The translations under genes and the position numbers were made by a program. This document shows positions 33,810 to 55,344 of a stretch of DNA of 64,000 bases, piece by piece. Every line of letters begins with the position of its first letter. Position 1 is the first letter of the stretch. The notes below the pieces were generated by a model, which saw nothing but the letters and a program-made list of their open reading frames with translations, made no database searches and had not been told where the DNA came from. This DNA is from a virus: positions 1 through 64,000 of IMG/VR virus record IMGVR_UViG_3300032331_003707. One strand, 5' to 3'.

Positions 33810-34020
33810 AATATATAATTTTCTTAAATAACATTTGGCCTTCGGGTCATTTTTTATTATATTACGGGTATGAATAAAAAACAAGATAGAGAAGAAATTA
33901 TATTTGTTGTATTAGCATTATTAACAACTCTGTGGATGGTTTTTTGCTAAATTACCCCAATTCTTTATCCGAGATTCTGAAATTAGATTTTGTATCTTTA
34001 TAGTATAAGATTTAAAACAT

Positions 34021-34293
34021 ATGAAATACTCAAGAGAATTTAAAAATGCAGATGGTACTGCAAGTACTTGGTTCTATGACACAGAACGTTTCCCAAATGG
34101 TCCTTACCGTGTTGAAATCGGTTATGCAAAAGATACCGATTACGATAAGGTATTTGAAGAGGAATATGATGAAGATAAAGATACTTCAACTGATACCTCA
34201 GTACCAATTACAAAACGTAGATGGACCAACCCAGCAAATGGTAAGCTTGTAGGTTATACTAGAGCTAAAAACCTTGGATTAGTAAAAAGTTAA
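34021..34293 (+). CDS. Hypothetical protein
   Basis: First ORF after a CCGAG promoter. Confidence 0.6.
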   Translation: MKYSREFKNADGTASTWFYDTERFPNGPYRVEIGYAKDTDYDKVFEEEYDEDKDTSTDTSVPITKRRWTNPANGKLVGYTRAKNLGLVKS

Positions 34294-34302
34294 AATAAAA
34301 TT

Positions 34303-34563
34303 ATGTCTATATCACCAAGAGCAATTAGAAATAATATTACTATCAAATTTGATGGTAAAACAGTTGATAAAAAAACTGTGCTAGAAGCAAGTGAAGCATG
34401 GGAACCTAAACACGAATCATTATTCGTAAAACTATTAAAACAGGGTGGTAAATTTACTGCTAACGGAGTAGTAGTAGAAGTGTTTCCTGCAGATCAAATG
34501 TTAACTTCACGAGGTGAAAAAGATAGTGGTATCATCACTTCAGATCCTTTAGCACGATTTTAA
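34303..34563 (+). CDS. Hypothetical protein
   Basis: ORF with A-rich leader. Confidence 0.6.
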   Translation: MSISPRAIRNNITIKFDGKTVDKKTVLEASEAWEPKHESLFVKLLKQGGKFTANGVVVEVFPADQMLTSRGEKDSGIITSDPLARF

Positions 34564-34705
34564 ATTAAATAACTATGAAAAAACTAATTAAAAGATTTCA
34601 CCAGGAAATGGAGGAAGCTTGTTATCCAATAGATCCATTCCCGGTTTATTTATTTATGGTAATAGCGTTATTATGTCCTGTTATAGTTAACTTATTAAAA
34701 TAATT

Positions 34706-34960
34706 ATGGAAGCAAAAGAAAAAGCAGAACAGTTAGTAAACAAAATGTTTAATTGGATTCAAGGCGGAAGTGTAATAGAATATGAAACAGCTAAAGAATG
34801 TGCCTTGATAGCAGTAGATGAAATATTAAATACTTTGCCAATTTTGAGACCTGCGCAAGATGCTGTAAATTATTTAGAAAATTATTCTGCTATACAAACT
34901 CAATTAGATAATCTAAGTTATTATTGGCAAGATGTAAAAGGAGAAATAGAAAATCTTTAA
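34706..34960 (+). CDS. Hypothetical phage protein (KEKAEQLV...AKECALIAVDEIL...YWQDVK family)
   Basis: Recognisable small phage ORF pattern. Confidence 0.6.
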   Translation: MEAKEKAEQLVNKMFNWIQGGSVIEYETAKECALIAVDEILNTLPILRPAQDAVNYLENYSAIQTQLDNLSYYWQDVKGEIENL

Positions 34961-35230
34961 ATTATGGAAAAATACGAAAAGAGTTTTTTATTAGGATTTT
35001 TTGTAGGTGGAATAATTGGTATAATAGTACTCGATCTAGTCCAAAGAGGAATAATTTAAAAATATGGAAGGTAAATACGTAATCATAGATCTTAGAACTA
35101 TGGATTTTATGAAGGATGAACATGGTATTATAAAGTACTATGACACCGAGGAAGAAGCAGGTCTTACCTGTGGTATACAAGAGCTTGAAAATGCTTGGGT
35201 AATGAAATTAGTGTTTAATCATATAGAAGA

Positions 35231-35494
35231 ATGATGGATCAAATAGGTTATGTCTTATTATACACCATTAATGGATTAGCAATAGCGTTTGTAGTATATA
35301 TTGGGGTTTGGATGCCTAAAGAAAAAATGAAAGGCCACGCCGGTAGAGGTAAATGTAAATGTTGTAATGAGAAAGTAGTATATCATGAAGACGATAATGG
35401 GAATTGGTTCAAAACTACACGTGACAAAGATGGGAACCGAATCTACATGGAAAGTAATGATGGAGTAATTTTTGATAATAGAAAAAATAATTAG
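35231..35494 (+). CDS. Hypothetical membrane protein
   Basis: N-terminal TM. Confidence 0.5.
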   Translation: MMDQIGYVLLYTINGLAIAFVVYIGVWMPKEKMKGHAGRGKCKCCNEKVVYHEDDNGNWFKTTRDKDGNRIYMESNDGVIFDNRKNN

Positions 35495-35753
35495 CCCCGC
35501 TCGCGAGGGGATCGTAAAACACAGTAAGCCTCTGAGATCGTACCAGCTATACTATTATGGTATAGGCGAACCTCAAGTAACTGTTCTCATCGTATAGGAG
35601 ATAGGGTGTTAGTTAGCCTTTTCAAACACCCGACGTCGTATCCAGACTTTAAAAGGCAACTATTAGTGAACTTCGGTACCCATACCGCTGACGATGGGCT
35701 AAGTAAGATACAATTCCGTGCTGCGGGGAGTAGAATGCCGAAGAGCTAATAGT
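35495..35753 (+). ncRNA. Unassigned structured RNA (multi-hairpin with pseudoknot)
   Basis: GC-rich, ORF-free; GGGTGTT/AAACACCC stem whose loop GCCTTTT pairs with AAAAGGC; ACTATTAG/CTAATAGT and CTTCGGT/GCCGAAG long stem. Confidence 0.6.
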
Positions 35754-35758
35754 AACAT

Positions 35759-35858
35759 AGTCAGGTGGTGTAATTGGGTAGCACAACGAAACGGGAGTAA
35801 CCGAAAGGCCAGTACCAATCTACTTGCGTTGATATAGGTTCGAATCCTGTCCTGACTA
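35759..35858 (+). ncRNA. tRNA-like RNA 1 (expanded anticodon arm)
   Basis: AGTCAGG/CCTGACT acceptor, D-arm GTG-TAATTGGGTAG-CAC, T-arm ATAGG-TTCGAAT-CCTGT; ~38-nt insert closed by CAACG/CGTTG. Confidence 0.7.
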
Positions 35859-35873
35859 CAAAATTAAATAGGA

Positions 35874-35978
35874 ATGACACAGGAGGAAATAAAACATTGG
35901 GTCGATAGGTGGTCGAAACTAAAGCCATCTCCTCAAAGAGATATGGTAATTAAGATTTGGTCTAGGTTATTGAAATAA
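35874..35978 (+). CDS. 34-aa ORF between the tRNA-like RNAs
   Basis: MTQEEIKHWVDRWSKLKPSPQRDMVIKIWSRLLK, fills the spacer exactly. Confidence 0.45.
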   Translation: MTQEEIKHWVDRWSKLKPSPQRDMVIKIWSRLLK

Positions 35979-35983
35979 AACAT

Positions 35984-36137
35984 AGTCAGGTGGTGGAATG
36001 GTAGACACATAATGACACGCACGGCAACCTTGAATAAGTGCACTTTGAAAAGGCAATGCGAATGATGAAGAACACTACCTCACAGTGCGTAGGTAAAATT
36101 CAAAGTGTTCATACAGGTTCGATTCCTGTCCTGACTA
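35984..36137 (+). ncRNA. tRNA-like RNA 2 (large insert replacing the anticodon arm)
   Basis: Same AGTCAGG/CCTGACT acceptor, GTGGAATGGTAGACAC D-arm, ACAGG-TTCGATT-CCTGT T-arm; ~100-nt insert with CACTTTGAA/TTCAAAGTG stem. Confidence 0.7.
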
Positions 36138-36196
36138 CTAAAGAGGATAAAACGCGTAGTAACCTCAGGGGTCTGCAGCCCCACTACGCTCCATTA

Positions 36197-36270
36197 GCGC
36201 CCTTAGCTCATTAGGTTAGAGCAACTGACTCATAATCAGTAGGTACCTGGTTCGATCCCAGGAGGGCGCA
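36197..36270 (+). tRNA. tRNA with CAT anticodon (probably Ile2, possibly Met)
   Basis: GCGCCCT/AGGGCGC acceptor, ACTGA-CTCATAA-TCAGT anticodon arm, GGTTCGATCCC T-loop; no encoded CCA. Confidence 0.92.
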
Positions 36271-36352
36271 CAAAATTTTTTTAACTATAGGTTGGCTTTA
36301 CTACTATAGTTATTATATTTCGGATATAATTAAAAACCAAATAAATAAAGTT

Positions 36353-36598
36353 ATGAACAAAATGTCAACAACCCCAAGTGCACGTTCTTACCGTCGCTTG
36401 AACCGTACTGCTAAATTAGCATTTTACAATGCTCGTCAACGTAAAGGTGACACTACCCGCTTAGCAGAAACTACTGGTTACTCAGCTAGCCATGTATCAA
36501 ATATTATTAATGGTCGCCGTTCGGTGAATCAGGATGTAGCAAACGCTATGTACAATATGTCTCGTCGTCGTATGAGAACAATCGAGCTAGTAGGTTAA
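36353..36598 (+). CDS. XRE-like HTH protein
   Basis: TRLAETTGYSASHVSNIINGRR. Confidence 0.75.
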   Translation: MNKMSTTPSARSYRRLNRTAKLAFYNARQRKGDTTRLAETTGYSASHVSNIINGRRSVNQDVANAMYNMSRRRMRTIELVG

Positions 36599-36625
36599 TT
36601 ACCTAAGCCATGTTGTGTGTTGGAG

Positions 36626-36655
36626 AGCATATCCTAAAGAGGATATGCTTTTCTT
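36626..36655 (+). terminator. Intrinsic terminator
   Basis: AGCATATCC-TAAAGA-GGATATGCT followed by TTTC. Confidence 0.7.
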
Positions 36656-36722
36656 CTCACTAAAGATATCCCCCAATTCTTTATCCGAGATTATAAAATT
36701 ATCTTTACTATATTTACAGTAT

Positions 36723-37196
36723 ATGAATATTTTTTACGTACATAAAGACCCAATAGTTGCAGCACAAATGCTAGCAGATGATCACATTCGCAAAATGCAA
36801 ATTGAAAGCGCTCAGATGCTTTGTACAGCACATTGGGAAACAGGAGGTGAAGCACCTTATAAGCGAGCTCATAAAAATCACCCCTCAACTATTTGGGCTA
36901 GACAATCACTGCAACATTATAGATGGTTGCTGAAGCATGGTTTAGAAATTTGTTATGAGTTTGAGAAACGTTATGGTAAACGCCATGCAACACAAGCTGT
37001 ACTTGAATGGTGTGAATTGAATATACCCAATATACCAAATGTTGAGTTCGTTGAACCACCATTGTGTATGCCTGAGGAATTTAAGATTGATGATACTATT
37101 GGTTCGTATAGAAACTTTTACATCAATGATAAAGTAAAAATTAAAAAATTGGATTGGAAGAAAAATCCTGAAAGAAAACCGAATTGGATATTATGA
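36723..37196 (+). CDS. Pyrimidine-dimer DNA glycosylase (DenV-like family)
   Basis: MNIF...D.H..KMQIESAQML, YK.AHKNHPSTIW, EFEKRYGKRH, YRNFY; start reassigned to the ATG after the promoter. Confidence 0.8.
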   Translation: MNIFYVHKDPIVAAQMLADDHIRKMQIESAQMLCTAHWETGGEAPYKRAHKNHPSTIWARQSLQHYRWLLKHGLEICYEFEKRYGKRHATQAVLEWCELNIPNIPNVEFVEPPLCMPEEFKIDDTIGSYRNFYINDKVKIKKLDWKKNPERKPNWIL

Positions 37197-37798
37197 GGAA
37201 TAATTTTGAGCAAATACGTAATATGTTGAAATTTGAGGATGATTATTTTTATTTCATTCAGATTATTCAACGTAAAAAAGAAAACCCTGAATTATGTTCT
37301 AGTAATAGAGTTATTCGTTCATATAATATCTCCAGTTTAGAGAAGTTTGATAAAGACAAAGATGAAATTATCACATTATGTGAAACATTTAATGCTCGTG
37401 CTTACATTCACTTGAATAGAAGAAAGTGGAGTAAGATTGCTTTAGAGTGTTTAAGACACAATGCTGAATTAATTGCAAATGAGCAGTACTATGGTATTAA
37501 ATCTAGTTTTGAAACTATCATTGGGCGTAACAATGGTGAATCAAGTAGAACCAAAACATGGATTATTGATGTTGATATGAATGATTTGGAGGTTGTAAAT
37601 AAAATTGAACGTATTATTAACAGTATAGAACCTATAGATAGGACTGTAACCAAATTAATGCATATTATTCCTACCAAGAATGGATATCATATGATTACTA
37701 CACCCTTCGATAGAGCTGAATTTAACAAATATATGCAATTACAAGGTGATGTACCTGATGTACACACCGATAATCCAACAATATTATACGCAATATGA
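37193..37798 (+). CDS. Putative AEP (primase-polymerase superfamily)-like nucleotidyltransferase
   Basis: WIIDVD (hhhDhD) and PTKNGYH motifs. Confidence 0.5.
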   Translation: MRNNFEQIRNMLKFEDDYFYFIQIIQRKKENPELCSSNRVIRSYNISSLEKFDKDKDEIITLCETFNARAYIHLNRRKWSKIALECLRHNAELIANEQYYGIKSSFETIIGRNNGESSRTKTWIIDVDMNDLEVVNKIERIINSIEPIDRTVTKLMHIIPTKNGYHMITTPFDRAEFNKYMQLQGDVPDVHTDNPTILYAI

Positions 37799-38184
37799 AA
37801 GATTTAATATTATTAAGAGGGTTACCTGGAGCAGGTAAGTCAACATTAGCTAAGTCATTAAGTTGTTGTGTATTTGAGGCGGATCAATATTTTATTGACT
37901 CTGAAACTGGCGAATATAAATTTGATATGTCAAAAATAAAACTAGCTCATGATTGGTGTAAATTGCGTGTTGGACATAGTATGGAAGATGGGTTAGGTAC
38001 GATTGTAGTTGCTAATACTTTTACCCGAGAATGGGAAATGGATGCTTATTATGAGTTAGCCGAAAAGTATGGATATCGAGTGCATTCTGTTATTGTGGAG
38101 AATAGACACGATGGAGTGAATGAACATGGATGCCCAGATGATAAAATAAAACAAATGAAAAATCGTTTTGAAATAAAGTTATAA
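37795..38184 (+). CDS. P-loop polynucleotide kinase-like protein (AAA_33)
   Basis: LRGLPGAGKST, EADQYF, AHDWC, VVANTF, NEHGCP. Confidence 0.82.
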   Translation: MKDLILLRGLPGAGKSTLAKSLSCCVFEADQYFIDSETGEYKFDMSKIKLAHDWCKLRVGHSMEDGLGTIVVANTFTREWEMDAYYELAEKYGYRVHSVIVENRHDGVNEHGCPDDKIKQMKNRFEIKL

Positions 38185-38185
38185 T

Positions 38186-39328
38186 ATGGAAAATAATAAT
38201 TCAGTGTGCTACGTAGCACGCATAAACGAAATCAAAGAAATCCCAGGAGCAGATAATATCGAGCAAGGTGTTATCGGTGGATGGAATTGTATTATCAAGA
38301 AAGGAGAATACAAAGTAGATGACTTGGTTGTAGTGGCAACAACCGATGCAGTCATTCCTGTAGAGTTGTCAGATGCAATGAATGTAACCAATTACTTACG
38401 TAAAGGTCAACGTGTGCGTACTGTTAAGTTGAGGGGAGTATATTCTGAGTGTTTGATTATACCTTTAAGATATGCTCGTCAATCTGCTAAGTACACTAAA
38501 TTGGAGTGGGATGAAGGTAAGGATATAATGGAATTGTTGGGTGTCTACAAGTATGAACCACCAGTACGCCAAGTACAATTGGCTGGGGGTCGTAAAATTA
38601 AATATAAAGACAATCCTAACTTCACAGTATATCACAAGTTCCCTAACATTAAGAATGTAACTGGAATGTTTACTGAAGAAGATTATGTACAAATTACTCG
38701 TAAGATACATGGTACAAATGCTCGTTACGGTATTGTTAAGAAACATAAATTATCGTTTTGGGATAAAGTTAAAAAACTCTTTACTAACAATATATGGGCT
38801 GAATATGAGTTTATATATGGGTCCCATAACGTTGAGAAAGGTTCAGATACACAAGGTTTTTATGATACTGATGTTTGGAGGGAAGTAGCTGATAAATATG
38901 ATATCAAAAACAAGTTATGGGAGTTTGCTAAAAAAATCTCACCAGCTGTAATTGGGTCTGGGGTAGTAGTTTATGGTGAAGTATATGGTCCTGGTATCCA
39001 AAAGAACTATGATTATGGGTTAAAGGAGTTAGAGTTTGCTGGGTTTGATATTACAGTCAATGGTACATACCAAACCACATTCGCTACTAGACATATTATG
39101 GTTGGTGCATTCGAATTACCACACGTACCTGAATTATGTGAACATACATCTTGGTCACAAGAGATTCAAGACCAATTCACATTCAACAACTTCATTGAAG
39201 GAACTAAAGTACCACATGAAGGTATTGTAATCAAACATATAAGTGGACAAAGAGAAAAAATAGCCAAAGTAATCAACCCAGACTACCTCATCTATGGAGA
39301 GAAACACGATGTAGGAGATAGCCACTAA
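38186..39328 (+). CDS. RNA ligase, DRB0094/Rnl5-like family
   Basis: N-terminal OB domain (IPGADNIE..VRTVKLRGVYSE), KIHGTN, YGEVYG, FDI, EGIV, AKVIN. Confidence 0.88.
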   Translation: MENNNSVCYVARINEIKEIPGADNIEQGVIGGWNCIIKKGEYKVDDLVVVATTDAVIPVELSDAMNVTNYLRKGQRVRTVKLRGVYSECLIIPLRYARQSAKYTKLEWDEGKDIMELLGVYKYEPPVRQVQLAGGRKIKYKDNPNFTVYHKFPNIKNVTGMFTEEDYVQITRKIHGTNARYGIVKKHKLSFWDKVKKLFTNNIWAEYEFIYGSHNVEKGSDTQGFYDTDVWREVADKYDIKNKLWEFAKKISPAVIGSGVVVYGEVYGPGIQKNYDYGLKELEFAGFDITVNGTYQTTFATRHIMVGAFELPHVPELCEHTSWSQEIQDQFTFNNFIEGTKVPHEGIVIKHISGQREKIAKVINPDYLIYGEKHDVGDSH

Positions 39329-39373
39329 ACTCTTTATCCTAGGCTTTTAAATAAAATTTATTATCTTTATAGT

Positions 39374-40024
39374 ATGAAAATAGAGTTAAAACAACATCAA
39401 AGATTATGGTTTACGAGTGATACTCACTACAACCACTCCAATATTTGTAGAGCAACTACACGTTGGACTGATGCTGATAGTGTGACTCGTGATTTTGCTT
39501 CATTAGAGAAGATGAATGAGGAGTTAGTGTACTGGATAAATAGGAGAGTAGCGCAGGATGATATCTTGATTCACTTAGGTGATTGGTCGTTTGGTGGTTT
39601 TGAAAGTATCCAAACATTTAGAGATAGAATTGTATGTCAAAACATACATTTAGTGTTAGGCAATCACGACCACCACATTCAGAATAACAGAGATAACATC
39701 CAATCTATATTCAGCTCAGTAAACCAATACTTGGACTTAGGTGTTAGTTGGTGGATTGCTGGCAAGAAAAAGGAACACGCTCGTTTCATTTGTATGCACT
39801 ACCCAATCGCAAGTTGGAATGGGATGAATGATGGTGCAGTGCATTTACACGGACACGTTCACTTACCTAAACATTTAAGAATGGCAGCAGGTAAAGCAAT
39901 GGATGTAGGAGTTGATGGAAATGACTTGGAGCCAATTGAAATGGATGATATATTAATAAAGATGGTATCTAGGCCAATTGCTAAATTAGCATTACCAAAG
40001 GATCACCACGAAAAAAGATTATAA
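39374..40024 (+). CDS. Calcineurin-like metallophosphoesterase
   Basis: SDTHYNH, LGD, GNHD, HYP, HGHVH, DVGVD. Confidence 0.9.
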   Translation: MKIELKQHQRLWFTSDTHYNHSNICRATTRWTDADSVTRDFASLEKMNEELVYWINRRVAQDDILIHLGDWSFGGFESIQTFRDRIVCQNIHLVLGNHDHHIQNNRDNIQSIFSSVNQYLDLGVSWWIAGKKKEHARFICMHYPIASWNGMNDGAVHLHGHVHLPKHLRMAAGKAMDVGVDGNDLEPIEMDDILIKMVSRPIAKLALPKDHHEKRL

Positions 40025-40025
40025 C

Positions 40026-40733
40026 ATGAAAACAATAGTATTAGGAGATACACATGGTCGTAACATTTGGAAAGAGATTGTGTTTCAAGAAAAAGCAGAT
40101 CGAGTTATTTTTATTGGAGACTATTTTGATAGCTTTGATATCGGTCCTGCTGAGCAGATGTTTAACTTTAGAGAGATTATTGACTTTAAAGAGAAGGGTG
40201 AGTGCGAAGTTATTTTACTAATCGGTAATCATGACTTCCACTACTACCCAGGTGGTGAAACATACTCAGGATATAAAGCAGGCGCGGCACCAGCTATTAG
40301 ACAAATACTACAAGAAAATAATCACCACATACAAATGTGTTATCAACTTGATAATGTTTTGTTTACACATGCTGGTATTGGTCATGATTGGTTAGTATAC
40401 CAAAATAAATATGAAAGTGGCTCAATTGCTGATTTTGTAAATGATATTTGGAAATATCAGCCTAATCGCTTTATGTTTTATGGTATTGACCAATATGGTA
40501 ATACTAAAACACAAACACCAATTTGGATTAGACCTCAAGCATTAATGGCTGGTAATAGAGATACATTCTTGAAAAAAGAGTATATTCAAGTAGTAGGACA
40601 TACTGCTGTAAGAAAGATTGATATCGAAGGTAAAGCAACAGGAGGCAGATATTACTTTATCGACACATTTGACACATCAGGCCAATTCCTGATTTATGAG
40701 AATGGAGAATTTAGATTAGGAGAATACCCTTAA
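40026..40733 (+). CDS. Calcineurin-like metallophosphoesterase
   Basis: GDTHG, GDYFD, GNHD, THAG, VGHT. Confidence 0.9.
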   Translation: MKTIVLGDTHGRNIWKEIVFQEKADRVIFIGDYFDSFDIGPAEQMFNFREIIDFKEKGECEVILLIGNHDFHYYPGGETYSGYKAGAAPAIRQILQENNHHIQMCYQLDNVLFTHAGIGHDWLVYQNKYESGSIADFVNDIWKYQPNRFMFYGIDQYGNTKTQTPIWIRPQALMAGNRDTFLKKEYIQVVGHTAVRKIDIEGKATGGRYYFIDTFDTSGQFLIYENGEFRLGEYP

Positions 40734-40747
40734 CACTTATATAAATT

Positions 40748-40990: not shown

Positions 40991-40992
40991 CT

Positions 40993-42063: not shown

Positions 42064-42567
42064 ACTATGACCATAACTTTAGAACCCATAACTCATATTA
42101 ACACATTAGATGTTATATATGATACAAAACTAAAGCAATTTTGTGTTTACCCACAAGGTGTAACTAACTTTGACGAGGATTATATTAAAAAGAATTGTTT
42201 AAGATTACCTTTACCGAATTAAATTATTATCCCTAATTCCTTATCCGAGGCTCTTTAATTATCTTTATTATCTTTATAGTATAAGAAAAAAATTATGATT
42301 ATATCAATTGTTATTTCAATTTCATTAGCAGCAATAGTTGCATTATTAATGGTTCGAGGATTGACCTATATGGAAAAAAATCACCCCGATTATAAAGGTG
42401 AGGATTTGTTTGACGAAGATAAAGATAATTTAATAAAATAAAGGTTATGAAAAATAAATTAAGCAATAAAGCAACAGATTTATTCGTAAGTTTTGCTATT
42501 GTATTTGGAGTATTCACATGCGTGTTTGCATTTTTAGGAATGTTTCTTAAATTAATATTTGGATAAT

Positions 42568-44909: not shown

Positions 44910-44989
44910 TTTTCACTCCCTAACTCTTTATCCGGGGCTCTTAAACATTCTATATTATCTTTAGAGTATAATTAAAAACAATAAAAGTT

Positions 44990-45796
44990 ATGTTAGAAAT
45001 CAAAAACACATCATTTCTCGACAAAGTTGAGATTAAAAAACGCGCCGCGTCAGTATTCACATCTGTAAAAGGCGAAGCAACAAGTGAAAAATACACTCAT
45101 ATTCCAACAGACCGTGTTATTGAAGACATGGAAAAGTTAGGATGGGGTGTAGTAGATGCTAAAGAAGTACGTGCTCGTAAAGGAGTAGGGTTTCAAAAGC
45201 ATTTGGTAGTATTTCGAAACCCAAGCATTGCCATTACAGGTGATGATGGTGATGATGTATTTCCACAAATTCTATTAACAAATAGTCATGATGGTAAAAA
45301 TGCATTTACATTTACGGCTGGTTTGTTTAGATTGGTTTGTGAGAATGGTTTAGTTATTTCAACTCAAGAGTTTGAAAACCTAAAGATTCGTCACATGGGT
45401 TATAACTTTGAAGAGCTACAAACAACAATCACAGCGTTAGTAGAAAAACTACCACTGACAGTTGATAGCATGAACAAGTTGAAAGCAACCAAACTGAATC
45501 AGAAACAGAAAGAAGACTTTGCTAAGCGTGCCCTAGAAACACGATTTGGTAAGGAAGATGTTCAAAACATTACTATTGATGTTAAGTCACTATTAGAACC
45601 AACTCGTAAGGAAGACAGTGGTGATGACATTTGGAGTGTGTTTAACGTGATTCAAGAGAAATTGATTCACGGTATGTTCGAGTATAAATTTGGTACTAAG
45701 GTACGTAAAGCTCGTAAAATCAAGAATTTCAAACAAGACATAAAGGTAAATGAAGATTTGTTTGAATTAGCACTTGATTATGTAACAGCGGCGTAA
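44990..45796 (+). CDS. DUF932/DUF945-family phage/plasmid protein
   Basis: SEKYTHIPT, LTNSHDG, AGLFRLVCENG, IRH, WSVFNVIQEKL. Confidence 0.8.
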   Translation: MLEIKNTSFLDKVEIKKRAASVFTSVKGEATSEKYTHIPTDRVIEDMEKLGWGVVDAKEVRARKGVGFQKHLVVFRNPSIAITGDDGDDVFPQILLTNSHDGKNAFTFTAGLFRLVCENGLVISTQEFENLKIRHMGYNFEELQTTITALVEKLPLTVDSMNKLKATKLNQKQKEDFAKRALETRFGKEDVQNITIDVKSLLEPTRKEDSGDDIWSVFNVIQEKLIHGMFEYKFGTKVRKARKIKNFKQDIKVNEDLFELALDYVTAA

Positions 45797-45966
45797 ACGC
45801 CAACGGTAGAAACAAAACATCCCCAGTTTCTTGCAGTGGGCCCACTGAGACTTTATAAGGATGTACATGGCCTCGACTCTGATCAAGTCGGGGCCTTCTT
45901 GATCCAAATTTTTTATCCGAGATTATAGATTATTTGTTTGTATCTTTATATTAAATAATAAAACAT

Positions 45967-46101: not shown

Positions 46102-46152
46102 TCCGAGATCATCAATTAACTTATATTATCTTTATACTATAAATTAAAACAC

Positions 46153-46614: not shown

Positions 46615-46671
46615 CCGAGATTTTAGAACAAATGATATTATCTTTATAGTATAATTAAAAACACAAAACAC

Positions 46672-47394
46672 ATGGAAAAAATTAGAATTGTTTGTGGTAA
46701 AGATTTGAATTTCAATAATTCAATCCTTCAACCAATGAAAACCAAATCAGAATTAGATGTAATTCTATCTGAAAGTGGTGGTTTAATGCCTGCAACTAAC
46801 ATGGTTATTGCTGGTGGTGCTGGGTCAGGTAAAACAACGTTAACATTAGATATGTTAGCTCGACTCACCACTGAGGGGTATAAAACATTGTTTATATCTG
46901 CTGAGATGGATGAGATTGGTTATTTCAAGTATTGCAAACGCTTACCTGCCATCGCATCTGTTCCCGTATTTTTTGTTAAAAATCATGTTGATACGTTAGC
47001 TCAAACATTGCTAACAGTGTTAGATGAGGGTTATGATGTGGTTGCTATTGATAGTGTTGCTGAGATATTAGGCATGTTCAAAGATGTATATAAAACTACG
47101 GAAGTAGCTGGTGAGAGATGGTTATTGGAGTTACAAGACAAACATAAAATGGGTCGTAACAAAACATCTACACATACATGTTTCATTAACATTCAACAAG
47201 TAACCAAACAAGGTACGTTTGCTGGTAGTAACCGATTGAAACATATGACTGATGCTATGGCCATTATCAAACGTGATGTGGATACAGCAGAGCGTAGTCT
47301 ACAGTTTGAGAAGAATCGTGATGGTAACACAGATCAGGTAGTAACATTTAGAATTACATCTGATAGTGTAGCATATGGTTTTGAGAGTATATAA
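46672..47394 (+). CDS. RadA/Sms-like RecA-family ATPase (no Zn finger or Lon domain)
   Basis: GGAGSGKTT, FISAE, VAIDS, VTKQGTFAGSNRLKHMTD, KNR. Confidence 0.82.
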   Translation: MEKIRIVCGKDLNFNNSILQPMKTKSELDVILSESGGLMPATNMVIAGGAGSGKTTLTLDMLARLTTEGYKTLFISAEMDEIGYFKYCKRLPAIASVPVFFVKNHVDTLAQTLLTVLDEGYDVVAIDSVAEILGMFKDVYKTTEVAGERWLLELQDKHKMGRNKTSTHTCFINIQQVTKQGTFAGSNRLKHMTDAMAIIKRDVDTAERSLQFEKNRDGNTDQVVTFRITSDSVAYGFESI

Positions 47395-47826: not shown

Positions 47827-48250
47827 AAAATTACCATAATTTTTTATCCGAGGTTCTGAAATTGAATTTTATATCTTTATAGTATAAGAAAAAAATATGA
47901 GTAAGTTTCAAGTAAAGTATTCAGGTAAGATGATGGATCAATTCCCACAGAATAGATTCAATCAATACCCAGCAACAGCACCTGCTTATGAGGTATTAGA
48001 TGAAAACGGAACATCTAGGTTTGTTGGTTCATATCAAGCATGTTGGAATTTTATTCAAATATTCGCTAATTAAACAATACATAATATGAAATATACACCA
48101 GCAATGCAACAAGTAGTAATGACACTCCAACAATATGGAATTGTCAACCCATCACCAAACCAAGTAGCATTAATCGCTTCAGATATAGGTGAGAATTTAA
48201 CCAGCGCTCAAATAGTATACATATCAAATAATGTCTAAATAAAACACAAC

Positions 48251-48736: not shown

Positions 48737-48792
48737 GCCGAGGTTATTAAATGAACATTATTATCTTTATAGTATAATTAAAAAATACACAC

Positions 48793-49128: not shown

Positions 49129-49205
49129 TAAATTCCCTAACTTCTTAGCCGAGATTTTCAAGTATTATATATTATCTTTATAGTATAAATTAAAAACATA
49201 AACAT

Positions 49206-49436
49206 ATGAAATTTCAATGTATTAAAGGTTTCGCAACATCAGATAATATATCTGTAATTGCAATGGAAGGTGATGTGGTTGAATTAATTTCAACTGATGA
49301 AGGTGAAGTTGTAGTGAATGGGATAGCAGGATGGTGTAATGGGTTTGAATTAAACTTCACACCAAGAGAATTCACTACACACTTCAGAACACTTGGAATC
49401 ACATATACTATTTGGGATAAGGATAAAGTAAAATAA
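49206..49436 (+). CDS. Hypothetical cassette protein
   Basis: Own CCGAG promoter. Confidence 0.65.
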   Translation: MKFQCIKGFATSDNISVIAMEGDVVELISTDEGEVVVNGIAGWCNGFELNFTPREFTTHFRTLGITYTIWDKDKVK

Positions 49437-49447
49437 AAACAAACAAT

Positions 49448-49990
49448 ATGAAAACAGTAGAAGAACAAATCGCAGAGTTACAAGACCGATTAAATAAACT
49501 TGAAAACAACTTAACAGAACGCTCTGAAGAGTATGAGCCGTGTTGTATTGAGGAGTGTACTTGTGAAGAACCTGAAACAGAAACGAATGAAGAAAAAGTC
49601 ATATTAAGACGAGGTGAGGTTTTAACAGAAGATGATAATGGACCTGAGTTTGACAGTGCAGGGTTTAGCGAAGCAGACCGCGAACCAGACCCAGAACAAA
49701 CAATATCATTCAATAGAGAAGAACTAATCACACTTGCTGCTAAACTAATGGAGCGAGCCTTAAAAGCAGCTAAAGAAGCAGTGGCAGATACTGAGTTTGA
49801 TGTTGATTCGTTAGTTTCATTAGAGTTAAATACGTGGAGTGGTAATACAATTGAAGTTGAGTTAGACAAAGACACAATTGTTGATAATATATGTAGTGAG
49901 ATTAGTGATACTATTTATTTAGATAATGACTCAGTTGAAGATGAATTACATGATATTTTAGTAGAAATAGGTAAAATAAAAATAAGTTAA
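49448..49990 (+). CDS. Highly acidic hypothetical protein
   Basis: Very D/E-rich, 180 aa. Confidence 0.65.
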   Translation: MKTVEEQIAELQDRLNKLENNLTERSEEYEPCCIEECTCEEPETETNEEKVILRRGEVLTEDDNGPEFDSAGFSEADREPDPEQTISFNREELITLAAKLMERALKAAKEAVADTEFDVDSLVSLELNTWSGNTIEVELDKDTIVDNICSEISDTIYLDNDSVEDELHDILVEIGKIKIS

Positions 49991-50358
49991 TTATGTGTGT
50001 GTTTTATATGTGTGCGATTGTGGGGACTTAGGTCCCCACTCTTGTTCCGAGGTAAAAAAACATTCGATATTATCTTTATAGTATAATTAAAAAATATACA
50101 CATATGAATCTAATTAAAGTAGAAAGAATCATTGCTCTAAAACAAAGACAAAAACAACTTGCAACACATTATGGCGAGCCAGATTGGGACCTTGAATGGG
50201 AATTGTCAGAACTAGAAGGGTCATTAACAAAACAGGAAGCATCAAAACTAATTGAACTCGAAACAGCAATACTATTTTAGTATTGTTGCCTTAACTCCTT
50301 ATCCGAGGTTATTAAGCAGATTATATTAAATTTATAGAAATAATAAAAACATACAATT

Positions 50359-50601
50359 ATGACAGTAAAAGAATTAAGAGAAGTATTAGCAGATTTCGAC
50401 GCAGACATGGAAGTACGATTCGCATACAACTATGGCGATTATTGGAATAGCGAAGTAGCAGCAGACATAACTGATGCAGAAATAGGTCAAGTTCAATACT
50501 CAGCATATCATAGATCAGACAAGGTTGTTGATCCTGACAGAGATAATGATGACGATAGCATAAATGCCTTAACCGCTCCACACGTAGTGATTTTAAGATA
50601 A
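50359..50601 (+). CDS. Hypothetical cassette protein
   Basis: Own CCGAG promoter. Confidence 0.65.
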   Translation: MTVKELREVLADFDADMEVRFAYNYGDYWNSEVAADITDAEIGQVQYSAYHRSDKVVDPDRDNDDDSINALTAPHVVILR

Positions 50602-50671
50602 TACAACTCCTTAGCCGAGATTCTAAAATGAACGATATTATCTTTAGAGTATAATTAAAAATAACACACAT

Positions 50672-51049
50672 ATGAAAATCTTATTAACACAAATCGAATC
50701 AGAAGATTATTTCTTGAATGCATTATGTAATGGCCTACATGAATTAGGTAATTACGGAGTTGAACTCGATTACAACGAGGATGAATATAAATTATCACGA
50801 GCATCATTAGGACCAAATGCACCGTGTTTTGAAGATGTATTGATGCAAATGTTACGTGATGGTTACAAATTAGATTTTACTGATACTGAAGCAGAAGAAA
50901 CCACATCTATTACAATGCATGACGTTTACGCTAAGGTACAGGAAACAGATATACGTCATTTATTAGATATGATAAATGAACGAGACGATGCTATAACAGC
51001 AGATGCTATATTACAAACAGTTATATATGGTGAGGTTATCTTCGGATAA
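50672..51049 (+). CDS. Ocr-like/acidic hypothetical cassette protein
   Basis: Acidic; ends DAITADAILQTVIYGEVIFG; own promoter. Confidence 0.55.
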   Translation: MKILLTQIESEDYFLNALCNGLHELGNYGVELDYNEDEYKLSRASLGPNAPCFEDVLMQMLRDGYKLDFTDTEAEETTSITMHDVYAKVQETDIRHLLDMINERDDAITADAILQTVIYGEVIFG

Positions 51050-51119
51050 CCTTACCTTTTAGCCGAGGTTATTCAACATTTGTTATTACTTTTATAGTAT
51101 AAGAAAAAATAACACACAT

Positions 51120-51389
51120 ATGAAAAAGTATCAAGACATACCCGAAATTACCGAGTATATACAAGCCCAAGAACTAATGATGTTAGCAGATTTAGCTAGG
51201 TTTGGTATTAGTGAAGGTAAGTTTCAACTTGAATTGTGTAAAGAAGAATTGAAAGCAACACCAGACATGGATGAACGGGAAGAAATTCTATTACAAGCTA
51301 AAGATATACAACATCATATCGATACATGTAATGAAACACTAAAATTCTTCAAAACGGAATTAAAATCATTAGTGTATATATTTAATTAA
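51120..51389 (+). CDS. Hypothetical cassette protein
   Basis: Own CCGAG promoter. Confidence 0.65.
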   Translation: MKKYQDIPEITEYIQAQELMMLADLARFGISEGKFQLELCKEELKATPDMDEREEILLQAKDIQHHIDTCNETLKFFKTELKSLVYIFN

Positions 51390-51460
51390 CCCTAATTCCT
51401 TACCCGAGATAAGGGAATAAATGATATTATCTTTAGAGTATAATTAAAAAATATACACAC

Positions 51461-51718
51461 ATGAGTAAAAAAACAATCAAAATTAACCTAAACGCAAACA
51501 CAGAAAAAGAATTGTTGTATAGACATTCATACGATTTAGGAACACTAATCGGAACAATGAGTGGTATATTAAAATACACAGATACTACTGACGAAGTGAA
51601 ACGTTTAATACTTAGATCACTACGTGAAATTGAACACGGTGATTCAGAATATAGTAAAAGTAAGATTAAACAGTTAGAAGCATTGGCGGATAGTTTTGGA
51701 TTCGAATTCGAATCCTAA
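51461..51718 (+). CDS. Hypothetical cassette protein
   Basis: Own CCGAG promoter. Confidence 0.65.
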   Translation: MSKKTIKINLNANTEKELLYRHSYDLGTLIGTMSGILKYTDTTDEVKRLILRSLREIEHGDSEYSKSKIKQLEALADSFGFEFES

Positions 51719-51794
51719 ACTCTTTATCCGAGGTTTTAAGATAGATATTCATATTTTTATAGTATAAGAAAAAATAATAAACACATAAAAGCAT

Positions 51795-51995
51795 ATGAAC
51801 GCAGATATCCACTTCACAGACGACCAAGGTAATGAGTTTTATGTTGGGATAAGAAATGGTGAATTAAGTCAAGTTTGGAAAAATAAAATGGACCTACATG
51901 ATTTTAGAGTTTATTATGAAGAATTAGATAAAATAGAACCTAACCATGGTATGTTTATAGATAGTGATGAATGGGAGAAAGAAATGGGTAGATAG
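51795..51995 (+). CDS. Hypothetical cassette protein
   Basis: Own CCGAG promoter. Confidence 0.65.
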   Translation: MNADIHFTDDQGNEFYVGIRNGELSQVWKNKMDLHDFRVYYEELDKIEPNHGMFIDSDEWEKEMGR

Positions 51996-52083
51996 TACCC
52001 TAACTGTTTAGCCGAGATTATTGAGTAAAATATATTATCTTTATATCATAAGAAAAAATAATAATCAAATAAAACACACAATT

Positions 52084-52260
52084 ATGCAAAGCGAATTACA
52101 GAAAATCATCAGTAACTTACTTCAATGTGGTATCAGTCAAAGTCAAATCGATGCGTTCGCAGCATTATATAGCGAAGCAGAAAAATTGAAAATTGAATTT
52201 GAAGAATTTGATCAATACGAAAAGGACGGACCATTGTACATCACATTGAAAATAAAATAA
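52084..52260 (+). CDS. Hypothetical cassette protein
   Basis: Start reassigned to MQSELQK after the promoter. Confidence 0.6.
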   Translation: MQSELQKIISNLLQCGISQSQIDAFAALYSEAEKLKIEFEEFDQYEKDGPLYITLKIK

Positions 52261-52279
52261 TAATTAAAAATAAAAAATT

Positions 52280-52435
52280 ATGTATAGTTTAGATTGTTCC
52301 TACTACACAAAATCATTTACAACATTAAATGAGTTAATAGATGATGTGACAATATCAGGCATGGACCCAAATTATGAGATAACACGTGACGGAAAAGGAA
52401 TAGGGGAAAATGCAATTGATTACCTAGTATTTTAA
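52280..52435 (+). CDS. 51-aa protein, copy 1 (MYSLDCSYY...SGMDPNYEIT)
   Basis: Read from sequence; paralog at 54147. Confidence 0.75.
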   Translation: MYSLDCSYYTKSFTTLNELIDDVTISGMDPNYEITRDGKGIGENAIDYLVF

Positions 52436-52505
52436 TCCGAGATAAGAAAGCAGATTATATTAAATTTATAGTATAAGAAAAAATAAAATATAATACCAGA
52501 AAAAC

Positions 52506-52805
52506 ATGAAGACACAGAACGAATTATTCAAAACATTCCTAAACGAGAATATCAATGAATTGAAAGATGTATTGGTGGATACGTTTGAATTAGATGAGGA
52601 TAATGTGAATGATATTGTTGGGTTTGACGGAAACAATTATGATGGGTATTATGGAGTAGATAAAGAAGGAGAATGTGTAACGTTTGGATGTGATATATTT
52701 GAATCATTAGATGATGATTTTGAAGAAGATAATGGTGATGATGTATCGATTGGAACAGATGTGATTGGTGGGAAAGAAATATATTTTGTATGTTACGATT
52801 TCTAA
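52506..52805 (+). CDS. Extremely acidic small protein (DNA-mimic candidate)
   Basis: D/E-rich, 99 aa; own promoter. Confidence 0.6.
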   Translation: MKTQNELFKTFLNENINELKDVLVDTFELDEDNVNDIVGFDGNNYDGYYGVDKEGECVTFGCDIFESLDDDFEEDNGDDVSIGTDVIGGKEIYFVCYDF

Positions 52806-53011
52806 AATCCTAACTCATTGTCCGTGATAAAGAAAGAAAATATATTATCTTTATAGTATGAAAGGAAAAATAACAGAAATGATAGTATCAATCATCACAA
52901 TGTATTTGATTGGTAGTTGTATGTTTTTATCGTTTAATCCATATGAATGGAGTATAACGGGAATAATCATATTAACATTAGTATTAGGAAAAGTATTAGG
53001 AGATTTGTATT

Positions 53012-53263
53012 ATGGGACAAAAGAATAAATTTAGTTCGTATAAACATTATCTAACATATCTAACTAATCATGGAGATGTGGAGAGTGATATGATAGAGAA
53101 ATTCATTGAAACGGGATTGTTGATAAAAGAGAAACAAGTGACGGTGGATGGGTATGAAGCGATTGGGTTTCGTGTGATGACGGAACGTGAATTTAACGGA
53201 TCTAAGATGAAGAGAAATGATATTTTTAGTCGTGTTGAGAGATGGTTAATTGGTGACAAATAA
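53012..53263 (+). CDS. Hypothetical protein
   Basis: ORF track. Confidence 0.5.
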   Translation: MGQKNKFSSYKHYLTYLTNHGDVESDMIEKFIETGLLIKEKQVTVDGYEAIGFRVMTEREFNGSKMKRNDIFSRVERWLIGDK

Positions 53264-53496
53264 AGATAGTGTGTGTTGTTTTAGGAATGGGAATTGGTGG
53301 TATGTGACATACGTATATATCAATGATATTACGGAATTATGAACACATGCTACCTTCCCCCCATCGCCTTCCAAATTTAGATAAGTAAAAAGAGGATATT
53401 TGTATATATTTTCCCTAACTCCTTATCCGAGGTTCCAAAAAGAAGGAATATATCTTTAGAGTATAAGTAAAAAGATATAAATTAAAAACAACAACT

Positions 53497-53697
53497 ATGT
53501 TAAGATGGATGTGGGATATGTATGGTATGTTTTCTTTAATGAAACTACTAATGTGGGACCTACCATTTATGTCCCTGAAGTTTACATATTACATGTTTAA
53601 GTACACTATCATAACGATGTATTATGTTATGAAGGGTTGTTTTGAAATGTTTAAGCTTTTTTATGTATTCATAAAGTTTTTAACAGGTATTTTTTAA
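53497..53697 (+). CDS. Met/aromatic-rich hydrophobic small protein
   Basis: Own promoter and downstream terminator. Confidence 0.55.
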   Translation: MLRWMWDMYGMFSLMKLLMWDLPFMSLKFTYYMFKYTIITMYYVMKGCFEMFKLFYVFIKFLTGIF

Positions 53698-53787
53698 GAG
53701 ATAAAAAGGGAACTTGAATAAGATTCCCTTCTCTTTATTCGAGATAAGAAGAAAAATGAACGTATTTTTACAGAAAAAAGAAAACAA

Positions 53788-54099
53788 ATGATTAAGATAA
53801 ATAAACACCCAGAATCAATCGACAACATGAGTAACCTAATAGAATCAGGGTTCACCATGAAATTCGAGAACGGAAATACTATCAGTGTTCAGTTCGGTGA
53901 TTTTAATTACAGTAGTAATAAAGATAAAGGAACAAAGAACACTGCAACATCAGCAGAAGTAGCAATATGGAACAGTGATGGGACGTGGTACGATTTTGGT
54001 GATGAGTTATATATTAAGGGATGGTGTGGTGTTGATGAGGTAGCGAAGTGGGTTTCATTTGCTGCTACCAATGTTTTTAGCCAAGGCTCTGAAGCATGA
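53788..54099 (+). CDS. Hypothetical phage protein (F.NG.TISVQFG...SAEVAIW family)
   Basis: Own promoter. Confidence 0.65.
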   Translation: MIKINKHPESIDNMSNLIESGFTMKFENGNTISVQFGDFNYSSNKDKGTKNTATSAEVAIWNSDGTWYDFGDELYIKGWCGVDEVAKWVSFAATNVFSQGSEA

Positions 54100-54146
54100 T
54101 ATCGTACATTTATAGTATAAGAAAAAATAATTAAACACACACAATT

Positions 54147-54302
54147 ATGTATAGCTTAAACTGCCATTACTACACAAAGCAATTCCCAGCATTAAACGAA
54201 TTGATAGAGGATATAACTATATCAGGTATGGATCCAAATTATGAGATAACACTTGATGGAGAAGGAACAGGAGAAGAAGCAATTGATTTCATTACTTTCT
54301 AG
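54147..54302 (+). CDS. 51-aa protein, copy 2 (MYSLNCHYY...SGMDPNYEIT)
   Basis: Read from sequence; paralog at 52280. Confidence 0.75.
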   Translation: MYSLNCHYYTKQFPALNELIEDITISGMDPNYEITLDGEGTGEEAIDFITF

Positions 54303-54525
54303 CCGAGACTCTAGAACATGATATATTATATTTACATAAAAAATAAAGGTTATGAAAAACAACAACACAGCACATTTGGGTAAGTATGTAGTGGTGAACA
54401 ATGTCCCACACAAGTTCGTAAACGGAAAATTAATAGCGCTAACCAAGAAGGGTTAAGCGCTATTTTTTATCCGAGACAACACATTGTTTAGTCGTATATT
54501 TAGCTTGTAATAAAAAAACACACAC

Positions 54526-54984
54526 ATGAAAATTACAGCATCAACCCCAATCACATCGCTCACCAGCAAAGAATTAACAACGGTAGTGATAAACACAGTA
54601 CAGTGGTGTTTCGATAATTTGAAACAACCACGTCGTCACAGAGTGTTCAACGGTATAAAATTAACCATGCCTGAGATGCATGTGTTCATTTCACGTAAAC
54701 GTGGTTATGATTTGAATCCGAAAAACAATTGTCGTGGTGAATACAATCCATTCATCAACCAAATCATCATTGTTAAAAACAACATTGATAGTTTCGAGGA
54801 TTTGGTCGACACAATCATTCATGAGTATACTCACTCAACACAAACATTAGGTAGCTATGCTAAGAAGAGCCTAAAATATGGTTATTATGATAACCCGTTT
54901 GAGGTTGAGGCACGTACTGTTGCTGCCATTCATACTGATGATTGTGTGTTTGATGTTTGTAAATTGTTAAATCCTAACTATTGA
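54526..54984 (+). CDS. Zincin-like metallopeptidase
   Basis: GEY, TIIHEYTH..Q, NPFEVEAR. Confidence 0.8.
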   Translation: MKITASTPITSLTSKELTTVVINTVQWCFDNLKQPRRHRVFNGIKLTMPEMHVFISRKRGYDLNPKNNCRGEYNPFINQIIIVKNNIDSFEDLVDTIIHEYTHSTQTLGSYAKKSLKYGYYDNPFEVEARTVAAIHTDDCVFDVCKLLNPNY

Positions 54985-55058
54985 TCCGAGATTACAAAGC
55001 GTATTGTCGTATTTTTATAGTATAAGAAAAAATAATAACAACACATAAACACACGATT

Positions 55059-55253
55059 ATGACAATTTCAGAAATGATTGAACAATTGACCGAGTTAAAA
55101 GCACAACACGGTGACATCGAAGTAGTATTGAACGTTACTGATCACACTGATTGGGATTACAATTTTGAACACCCCGGTTTTGATGTTGGTGAGGTGTATG
55201 AAGAGGGGTTTGATGAAGATACTAACTATTGTATCTGTAGTATACAAATATAG
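55059..55253 (+). CDS. Hypothetical cassette protein
   Basis: Own CCGAG promoter. Confidence 0.6.
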   Translation: MTISEMIEQLTELKAQHGDIEVVLNVTDHTDWDYNFEHPGFDVGEVYEEGFDEDTNYCICSIQI

Positions 55254-55344
55254 TCGTAGTTACCTATCCGAGATTAGAAGACAAATGTTCGTATTTTTAT
55301 AGTATAAGAAAAAAATAATAAACACAAAAACAAAACACACAGTT

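Follow-up and report, generated by a model that had tools for sequence, protein, structure and literature searches.

A same-strand array of predicted promoter cassettes with an exchanged upstream box in a contig of a probable T4-like phage

Hyperplastic regions of T4-type phages carry PeSLs, repeated modules of a promoter and a stem-loop that hold an upstream stop codon and a downstream start codon; they break the homology between close relatives and form mini-circles (PMC2839356; PMC4122927). Such modules have been described in the phages RB49/phi1, PST/T4 and nt-1/KVP40 (PMC2839356, Arbiol et al. 2010; PMC4122927, Comeau et al. 2014), and Vibrio phage nt-1 also carries PmSLs, which are built on the Mot box (PMC4122927). 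Middle promoters of T4 keep an excellent host −10 element and have a MotA box in place of the −35 element (PMC2988021, Hinton 2010). Here we analyse the first 64 kb (64,000 nucleotides, the window) of the 100,345-bp IMG/VR virus record IMGVR_UViG_3300032331_003707 (CheckV completeness estimate 62%), where an array of co-oriented cassettes has the pentamer CCGAG, 19 nt upstream of a −7-type box, in place of the host upstream box.

Little is known of how Bacteroidota and their phages control transcription, and to our knowledge no sigma-appropriation-type system has been described outside the MotA/AsiA phages. We compared the record (G000) with related metagenomic contigs (G001, G002 and G005–G010) found by a pattern scan of IMG/VR and by a RecA-like protein search; further lineages were reached via the sigma-like protein discussed below. 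Two of the contigs, G005 (127.8 kb) and G006 (43.5 kb), came from one sample and fit together into ~171 kb of one relative of the CCTAG type. T4-type genes found in the record or its relatives include those for the large terminase, baseplate wedge, portal, prohead protease, major head protein, sheath and tail tube, a gp32-like single-stranded DNA-binding protein, a UvsX-like recombinase, an exonuclease, the clamp loader (including its small subunit) and DNA polymerase. No match to gp55 or gp33 was found in the record or its relatives.

The array, its anatomy and the exchanged box

The exact string CCGAG-N19-TATCTTTA is present in 13 copies, all on the plus strand, versus 0.00 in 100 shuffles that preserved dinucleotides. 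When TAnnTTTA was allowed as the downstream box, we counted 22 CCGAG copies on the plus strand and none on the minus strand; they are confined to positions 33969–55299, and the remaining ~45 kb of the record hold none. When spacers from 14 to 24 nt were scanned, 19 nt was the sole length occurring with CCGAG and TAnnTTTA. Three cassettes within the array have a box with one mismatch (CCGGG, TCGAG and CCAAG), giving 25 cassettes in total (Table 1), 17 of them in 48–55.3 kb at a mean spacing of 408 bp. A first-pass annotation, made from the sequence alone, had claimed ~28 same-strand copies with a constant spacer. The single strand and the 19-nt distance were borne out; the copy number was too high, as ~28 is attained only when TTTGG sites are added.

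Circular selection was avoided by picking sites by the downstream half alone (TAnnTTTA plus the start region). Among the 35 sites so picked, the pentamer 19 nt upstream was CCGAG in 20 and TTTGG in four, the others being singletons. The CCGAG cassettes are real and far beyond chance; that they are promoter cassettes is well supported.

The conserved element extends over ~75 nt (..CCctAAcTCyTTAt-CCGAG-rTT..(spacer)..tAT-TATcTTTA-tAGTATAA-gaAAAAA..). It had been described earlier as a pair of conserved ends around a variable spacer; such an element does exist, and it is longer than described and has a further conserved CC, 14 bp upstream. The order within a module is CC, 12 nt, CCGAG, the 19-nt spacer, the −7 box, the start region, an A-rich leader and ATG. 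The ATG lies 19–45 nt downstream of the box in every cassette; the preceding stop codon, where measured, lies 0–22 nt upstream of CCGAG and abuts the box in several copies. Genes after the cassettes mostly encode proteins of 40–270 amino acids, many of which are absent from the relatives.

The −7 box of the Bacteroidota primary sigma factor (sigma-A) is TAnnTTTG, spanning −12 to −5 (PMC9723704). All copies in the array have TAnnTTTA, with A where this consensus has the final G. The −33 box TTTG, part of the Bacteroidota primary-sigma form TTTG-N19-21-TAnnTTTG, is missing from the cassettes, which have CCGAG in 22 cases and CCGGG, TCGAG or CCAAG in the other three. Since the downstream box matches TAnnTTTG at −12 to −5, transcription would start at about the fifth base after the box. 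Shine-Dalgarno-like motifs were seen at 6% of genes versus 11% of random windows, and leaders are A-rich, in agreement with Bacteroidota translation signals (PMC6847099). A scan for promoters of the E. coli type showed no enrichment (63 found, 71.5 expected). Judging by the promoter and translation signals, the host is probably a Bacteroidota bacterium. The cassette pattern, including the phage-specific start region, had no match when one representative genome was scanned for each of 185,579 species of bacteria and archaea; the phage UDP-glucose dehydrogenase was searched for close relatives in bacteria, of which there were none, and megablast of 44–56 kb against cultured phage genomes returned no match.

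Hairpins of −8 kcal/mol or below that end 4–14 nt upstream of the box were observed in seven of the 22 cassettes of G000 and in seven of the 28 of G002. Together, 14 of 50 cassettes have a strong hairpin upstream, compared with 12 of 120 random sites, and most cassettes have no hairpin. Terminator-like sites number 15 at 42–56.5 kb (5.7 expected). These counts suggest that a minority of modules are composites of a putative terminator and a promoter. A role as an RNA-level processing site was set aside, because the element lies upstream of the predicted start and at a fixed distance from the −7 box.

The box differs among relatives. G001 (66.6 kb), which is syntenic with G000 and shares ~70% amino-acid identity in structural genes, has CCGAG in 11 cassettes, CCTAG in six and intermediates in four (CTGGG twice, CTTGG and CTTAG). 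CCTAG was found 28 times in G002 (140 kb) and 26 times in G006, and CCGAG in neither. G009 has four CCGAG copies and G010 has three to four CCTAG copies and one CCGAG, each of the two contigs with a different −7 variant. Only TTTGG or CTTGG was seen in G008 (15 sites) and in the 92%-complete G007, and a more distant relative has cassettes made of a stem-loop and TTTGG-N19-TACATTAAC.

We then regarded as orthologous those promoters that precede orthologous downstream genes. The promoter of the 268-amino-acid gene has CCGGG in G000, CTGGG in G001, CCTAG in G002 and G006, and TTTGG in G008, all in the same register. Comparing 28 orthologous promoter pairs, we found the same base in 80–98% at box positions 1, 2, 4 and 5 and in ~10% at position 3; identity reaches ~90–99% in the −7 box and 20–60% in spacer and flanks. 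These values show that the element is CCKAG, that it is under constraint, and that the box type is a property of the lineage rather than of the gene. The box was thus misnamed when it was taken for a phage-specific CCGAG; CCKAG is present in at least six related contigs. The accompanying proposal of a distinct promoter class with a swapped box stands as regards the swap, which is documented here at orthologous promoters, in the same register and within a Bacteroidota promoter grammar.

TTTGG combined with an identical downstream box in identical register, as the first-pass annotation had stated, was confirmed at four sites of the window and at a fifth site, with the same −7 half and start region, outside it (record position 94407). 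The TTTGG promoter before a conserved 107-amino-acid gene is also kept in G002 and G005. Both classes have the early spacer part r-y-T-y-T-t-A-A in common. Upstream of the box, the TTTGG class is A-rich; a T-rich stretch and the conserved CC 14 bp before the box are found in the CCKAG class only.

Genes are partitioned between the two classes. In G005, a TTTGG or CTTGG promoter stands before the genes of DNA polymerase and the clamp loader, before a GroEL operon and an operon upstream of the endolysin gene, and before FolE, which is followed by a nucleotide pyrophosphohydrolase gene; QueC/D/E, located upstream, follow a different TTTGG site. Behind CCKAG promoters are small genes without known function and, additionally, genes for a DenV-like glycosylase, RNA ligase, a kinase, two phosphoesterases, thymidylate synthase and a RecA-like ATPase. 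The first-pass annotation had proposed a cargo of host-takeover and anti-defence genes; the nameable genes behind these cassettes are those of DNA repair, RNA repair and nucleotide enzymes.

Homology between relatives breaks at the cassettes. In 44.9–55.3 kb, 21 of the 28 ends of nucleotide homology blocks shared by G000 and G002 lie within ~65 nt of a cassette, and the blocks are ordered differently in the two genomes. At the 48738 cassette, the upstream gene is common to both (94% amino-acid identity) and the downstream gene differs; the gene tables have many lineage-specific small genes interspersed with common ones. Since cassettes are intergenic, a part of this coincidence is expected anyway; the pattern is nonetheless the one described for PeSLs. 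The suggestion of an expandable array fits what we observed, with genes gained, lost and reordered at cassettes, and a cargo made mostly of small variable accessory genes.

Candidate readers and competing explanations

We consider it somewhat probable that the 25 elements represent one promoter class, read by a dedicated factor, that doubles as a set of recombination seams. The cassettes would be the junction modules within a variable region of accessory genes in a T4-like phage, each opening with the upstream stop codon or a terminator-like hairpin (~30%), followed by a T-rich stretch. The two-part element CC-N12-CCKAG would occupy the place of the host −33 box; the 19-nt spacer, a near-perfect −7 box TAnnTTTA, the start region tAGTATAA (with the start expected ~5 nt after the box) and an A-rich leader without a Shine-Dalgarno sequence would follow. 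The host primary sigma factor would recognise the −7 box, as at the TTTGG promoters of the phage; CCKAG would not be a substrate of sigma region 4, and another factor, most likely phage-encoded or injected, would read it at −33. The outcome would be a separately controlled regulon, resembling the one that the MotA box defines at T4 middle promoters. Being near-identical over ~75 nt and in one orientation, the modules would also serve as seams for homologous recombination, through which genes are gained, lost and reordered.

Several considerations weigh against this explanation. TTTGG promoters drive replication genes, the cargo of T4 middle promoters, and CCKAG drives small orphan genes, the cargo of T4 early promoters. 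CCGAG and CCTAG are mixed in G001 and G010, so position 3 carries little specificity. Gene conversion among repeats, and not selection, could keep the box uniform within one genome. Profiles of MotA_activ, Sigma70_r4 and Sigma70_r2 gave no match above family cut-offs in G000, G001, G002, G005 and G006. Finally, what is directly observed comprises the motif with its statistics and its location ahead of genes, the box swap between orthologous promoters, the constraint on the box and the breaks inside cassettes; promoter activity, start site, timing and the existence of a reader are what we infer.

One could speculate, tentatively and with the chances well below even, that aquatic T4-like phages of Bacteroidota evolved a sigma appropriation of their own, independent of MotA, in which a small or injected phage protein remodels or displaces region 4 of the unusual primary sigma factor of Bacteroidota and reads CC-N12-CCKAG; pre-late genes would then fall into two regulons, one for replication, read by the host at TTTGG, and one of accessory genes, read by the factor at CCKAG. 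Sigma appropriation had been put forward in the first-pass annotation too, with an exceptionally strong early promoter as an alternative that may still hold. Sigma appropriation is a reasonable but unproven analogy: neither MotA_activ nor Sigma70_r4 has a match in G000 or the ~171-kb relative.

The search for a reader covered several candidates. PF09114 (MotA_activ) had no match in G000 or G001, and among the ~70 proteins scanned with PHROG and the 40 scanned with Pfam there was none of a MotA, AsiA or anti-sigma family, although the Pfam model of AsiA itself was not part of the search. Small proteins of this kind may exist that have diverged too far for sequence detection. The conserved basic 107-amino-acid protein, whose gene follows a TTTGG promoter, was considered as a candidate activator; it is TTTGG-driven in three genomes and absent from G007. 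This protein has only ~70 homolog clusters, and its confident model (predicted local distance difference test score, pLDDT, 77.6) is a beta-meander with three helices, for which Foldseek against PDB gave no fold match (best E-value only 0.13). A screen for proteins present in G002, G005 or G006 and not in G007 or G008 returned ~50 mostly small proteins and was too unspecific.

By phyletic pattern the best candidate was a 118-amino-acid AT-hook protein with four to five RGRPVxxxSxRQxRLA repeats, whose gene closes the array in every CCKAG phage examined. It is disfavoured, as a weak relative occurs in G008 and as the DNA preference of AT-hooks is for AT-rich minor grooves and not for CCKAG. The RecA-like ATPase orthologs of G007 and G008 have an N-terminal RGRP extension.

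A 253-amino-acid protein encoded 7 kb downstream of the array is sigma-like; a disordered linker joins its two helical domains. The Sigma70_r2 profile matches it weakly (16.3 bits, E 7.6e-4). Almost all of the 50 top-ranked Foldseek matches of its model are sigma factors, at a best E-value of only 0.06; the protein's own profile had no match among PDB sequences. At least 8000 metagenomic homologs at ~65% identity were found, a few of them named sigma-24 family by JGI. The likely partner of this protein is the motif ATATTTATAA, which five genomes carry at 78 distinct sites, always on the coding strand and 0–32 nt before ATG; many sites are just 2–6 nt ahead of it. The motif has no upstream −35-like element. 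Structural genes follow it in each of these phages, and so do others of the late type. Besides the six sites in the window (Table 1), many more are in 64–100 kb of the record and in G002, G005, G007 and G008. ATATTTATAA is probably the late promoter class; reverse-complemented, it reads as the T4 late consensus TATAAATA, in opposite orientation. The T4 late consensus itself was tried and rejected, most copies being on the non-coding strand as the reverse complement of the true coding-strand motif TATTTATA. The sigma-like protein probably serves a very large group of aquatic phages as their late sigma factor; as opposed to T4 gp55 it has a C-terminal helix-turn-helix-like domain, though its likely promoters have no upstream element.

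We think it rather unlikely that host polymerase with the primary sigma factor reads the cassettes unaided, by the −7 box, start region and T-rich stretch, CCKAG being a shut-off operator or a near-neutral sequence homogenised by conversion. The −7 half is very well conserved and identical to that of the TTTGG promoters, and G008 runs the same array from TTTGG promoters, so that the array genes need in principle no special factor. The cargo consists of small orphan genes, a type that T4 expresses early (PMC2988021), the profile searches of the five genomes named above found no activator gene, and intermediate boxes (CTTGG, CTGGG, CTTAG, CCGGG and CCAAG) exist. Yet C-C-x-A-G and the CC 14 bp upstream were kept while spacers and flanks diverged to 20–60% identity, which argues for selection and not drift, and replication-gene promoters in the same genomes keep TTTGG, making the swap specific to a gene class. 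Less credible again is a cassette that serves mainly for recombination, as a PeSL-type or integron-like seam, where a recombination protein targets CCKAG and the CC, and the −7 half alone gives the promoter; this would be compatible with the factor-read explanation. Homology blocks of G000, G001 and G002 do end inside cassettes and gene order is shuffled, and the PeSL papers show mini-circles arising by inter-cassette recombination and speculate on a specific binding protein (PMC2839356). TTTGG-type arrays of relatives, however, are shuffled as well without CCKAG, no integrase or recombinase was seen beside the array, and the fixed 19-nt distance to the −7 box suggests a role in the polymerase complex.

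We give little credence to a phage sigma-like protein that replaces host sigma and reads CCKAG via its C-terminal helix-turn-helix. The proximity of the gene to the array, the weak Sigma70_r2 match, the sigma-24 names and the Foldseek matches to sigma factors would fit, as would the variation at residue 232 of the putative recognition helix (L in G000, V in G001, N in G002 and F in the close homolog P0004, whose box type is unknown). This protein was rejected as the reader, since it is universal in the wider group and is present in the TTTGG-only G007 and G008, and the helix does not track the box: the putative helix KITKIANQLYSIFK is identical in G002 (CCTAG) and G007 (TTTGG), and G009 (CCGAG) has N at residue 232 where G000 has L. 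Furthermore, ATATTTATAA is a more economical partner, and the −7 half of the cassettes is of the host sigma-A type. The least probable alternative, to our mind, is a host transcription factor borrowed by the phage, for which CC-N12-CCKAG would be a class II-type activator site with its centre near −40. The conserved upstream element reaches from about −52 to −28 and overlaps −33 in the manner of class II activator sites, and our searches found no phage reader. Opposed to it are the lack of dyad symmetry in the element and the absence of the cassette pattern, which included the phage-specific start region, from the 185,579 species representatives.

Other features of the window and its relatives

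Coordinates of the cassettes, the TTTGG sites, the late-type motif and the genes mentioned in the text are collected in Table 1.

Table 1. Predicted promoter elements and selected genes, in order of position
Position	Strand	Feature	Remarks
24521..24552	+	TTTGG-N19-TACATTTA	Host-type −33 box, same register
24569-24934	+	Gene, acidic 121-amino-acid protein	Behind TTTGG promoter
25575		ATATTTATAA	
26588		ATATTTATAA	
27543		ATATTTATAA	
28218		ATATTTATAA	
29158..29189	+	TTTGG-N19-TATCTTTA	Same start region; precedes conserved 107-amino-acid gene
29215-29538		Gene, 107-amino-acid basic protein	
33969..34000	+	Core CCGAG-N19-TATCTTTA	First of array; ATG 34021
36645-40733	+	Repair gene set	Inside array
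36685..36716	+	Core CCGAG-N19-TATATTTA	Precedes DenV-like gene
42245..42276	+	Core CCGAG-N19-TATCTTTA	ATG 42295
44932..44963	+	CCGGG cassette (one mismatch)	Precedes conserved 268-amino-acid gene 44990-45796
45917..45948	+	Cassette core	Strong hairpin 45869-45895 upstream
46103..46134	+	Cassette core	ATG 46153
46615..46646	+	Cassette core	TAG of upstream gene abuts CCGAG; precedes RecA-like ATPase gene 46672-47394
47848..47879	+	Cassette core	
48738..48769	+	Cassette core	Homology break inside cassette (G000 vs G002)
49149..49180	+	Cassette core	
50047..50078	+	Cassette core	Hairpin GTGGGGAC..GTCCCCAC at 50020-50039 upstream
50303..50334	+	Core CCGAG-N19-TAAATTTA	
50615..50646	+	Cassette core	
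51063..51094	+	Core CCGAG-N19-TACTTTTA	UUCG-loop hairpin upstream
51404..51435	+	Cassette core	
51728..51759	+	Core CCGAG-N19-TATTTTTA	Hairpin upstream
52012..52043	+	Cassette core	
52437..52468	+	Core CCGAG-N19-TAAATTTA	
53427..53458	+	Cassette core	
53739..53770	+	TCGAG cassette (one mismatch)	
54081..54112	+	CCAAG cassette (one mismatch)	
54303..54334	+	Core CCGAG-N19-TATATTTA	
54471..54502	+	Cassette core	Hairpin upstream; orthologous promoter in G001 is CTTGG
54986..55017	+	Core CCGAG-N19-TATTTTTA	
55268..55299	+	Cassette core	Last of array; precedes AT-hook repeat protein gene
55345-55701	+	Gene, 118-amino-acid AT-hook protein	
58661..58692	-	TTTGG-N19-TATCTTTA	GGCC-TTCG-GGCC hairpin inside spacer
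59022-59594	-	Gene, ClpP-family protease	
60880..60911	-	TTTGG-N19-TATCTTTA	Heads minus-strand block
60951		ATATTTATAA	
62716-63477	+	Gene, 253-amino-acid sigma-like protein	
63487		ATATTTATAA	
94407-94438		TTTGG site	Outside window

Some TTTGG promoters have features of their own. The one at 58661 and several in G005 and G008 hold, within the 19-nt spacer, a GGCC-TTCG-GGCC hairpin and then a T-run, as if a terminator were nested in the promoter; such an arrangement is among the PeSL subclasses known from phi1. At the site outside the window and at similar sites of G002 and G005, ATG lies just 6–7 nt after the −7 box, an arrangement that implies leaderless or nearly leaderless messages if the predicted start is right. 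A further TTTGG promoter precedes the gene of the very acidic protein, which matches the DksA/TraR zinc finger at 22.5 bits, just below the cut-off, and may bind the secondary channel of the polymerase.

The repair set inside the array consists of a DenV-like pyrimidine dimer glycosylase, an AAA_33 kinase, an RNA ligase and two metallophosphoesterases, and resembles the Pnk/Rnl tRNA-repair logic of T4. A protease gene of the ClpP family (Pfam CLP_protease, 78 bits) lies in the minus-strand block that separates the array from the structural genes and is distinct from the T4-type prohead protease gene of G001; it is present in CCKAG phages and was not detected in G007 or G008.

Loci L065 and L066 of G005, in the part of the genome missing from the G000 record, encode QueC, QueD, QueE, FolE and GroEL, as well as a DNA polymerase split by a homing endonuclease. 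The Que and FolE genes (7-deazaguanine synthesis) suggest that the DNA is probably modified at G, and such modification could affect recognition of G-containing promoter boxes.

Comparison with known systems

What is particular here is that one genome has two upstream boxes with one downstream half and that the swap is documented at orthologous promoters. The same downstream half is found with three upstream boxes (TTTGG, CCTAG and CCGAG) at orthologous promoters of sister lineages, which offers a comparative handle, and two promoter classes are split by gene function within one genome. If the sigma-appropriation reading is true, the TTTGG sister lineages are a natural before-and-after comparison; if a reading factor exists, the cassettes could be used as orthogonal, switchable promoters in Bacteroidota genetics. 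The PeSL idea of promoter modules as recombination seams would be extended to a distant host phylum.

T4 early promoters, whose activity the injected ADP-ribosyltransferase Alt enhances (PMC2988021), offer one parallel: numerous near-alike promoters stand before small genes of the early region, and in both systems conserved positions go beyond the host consensus. T4 early promoters keep an excellent −35 element, whereas CCKAG cassettes do not; with regard to Alt, no ADP-ribosyltransferase was identified here, and the 1154-amino-acid protein that we examined has nucleotidyltransferase domains.

With PmSLs and T4 middle promoters (MotA/AsiA; PMC4122927, PMC2988021, PMC6755090) the cassettes share a high-quality host downstream element with a phage box upstream, as well as the coexistence of this class in one genome with a class that has the host upstream box. 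They differ in that a MotA/AsiA homolog was not detected, the 19-nt spacing is rigid, the element is the two-part CC-N12-CCKAG, and the gene classes are reversed relative to T4, replication genes here keeping the host-type box.

The closest of the known systems are the PeSL/PmSL cassettes, which the first-pass annotation had left unmentioned. In PeSLs and in the present array alike, modules of ~75–100 nt are repeated on the same strand between small non-essential genes of hyperplastic regions; they hold an upstream stop codon, some stem-loops, a promoter (predicted here) and the start of the next gene, and the differences between relatives break at them. The spacer hairpin of the TTTGG site at 58661-58692 corresponds to a described PeSL subclass. 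Unlike PeSLs, the cassettes follow Bacteroidota grammar (−33/−7 and no Shine-Dalgarno sequence) and not that of sigma-70, their upstream box is not that of the host, and a clear hairpin is present in only ~30% of CCKAG cassettes. By analogy, the array resembles the form built on the Mot box, PmSL, and we regard it as the Bacteroidota counterpart of the PeSL/PmSL cassettes.

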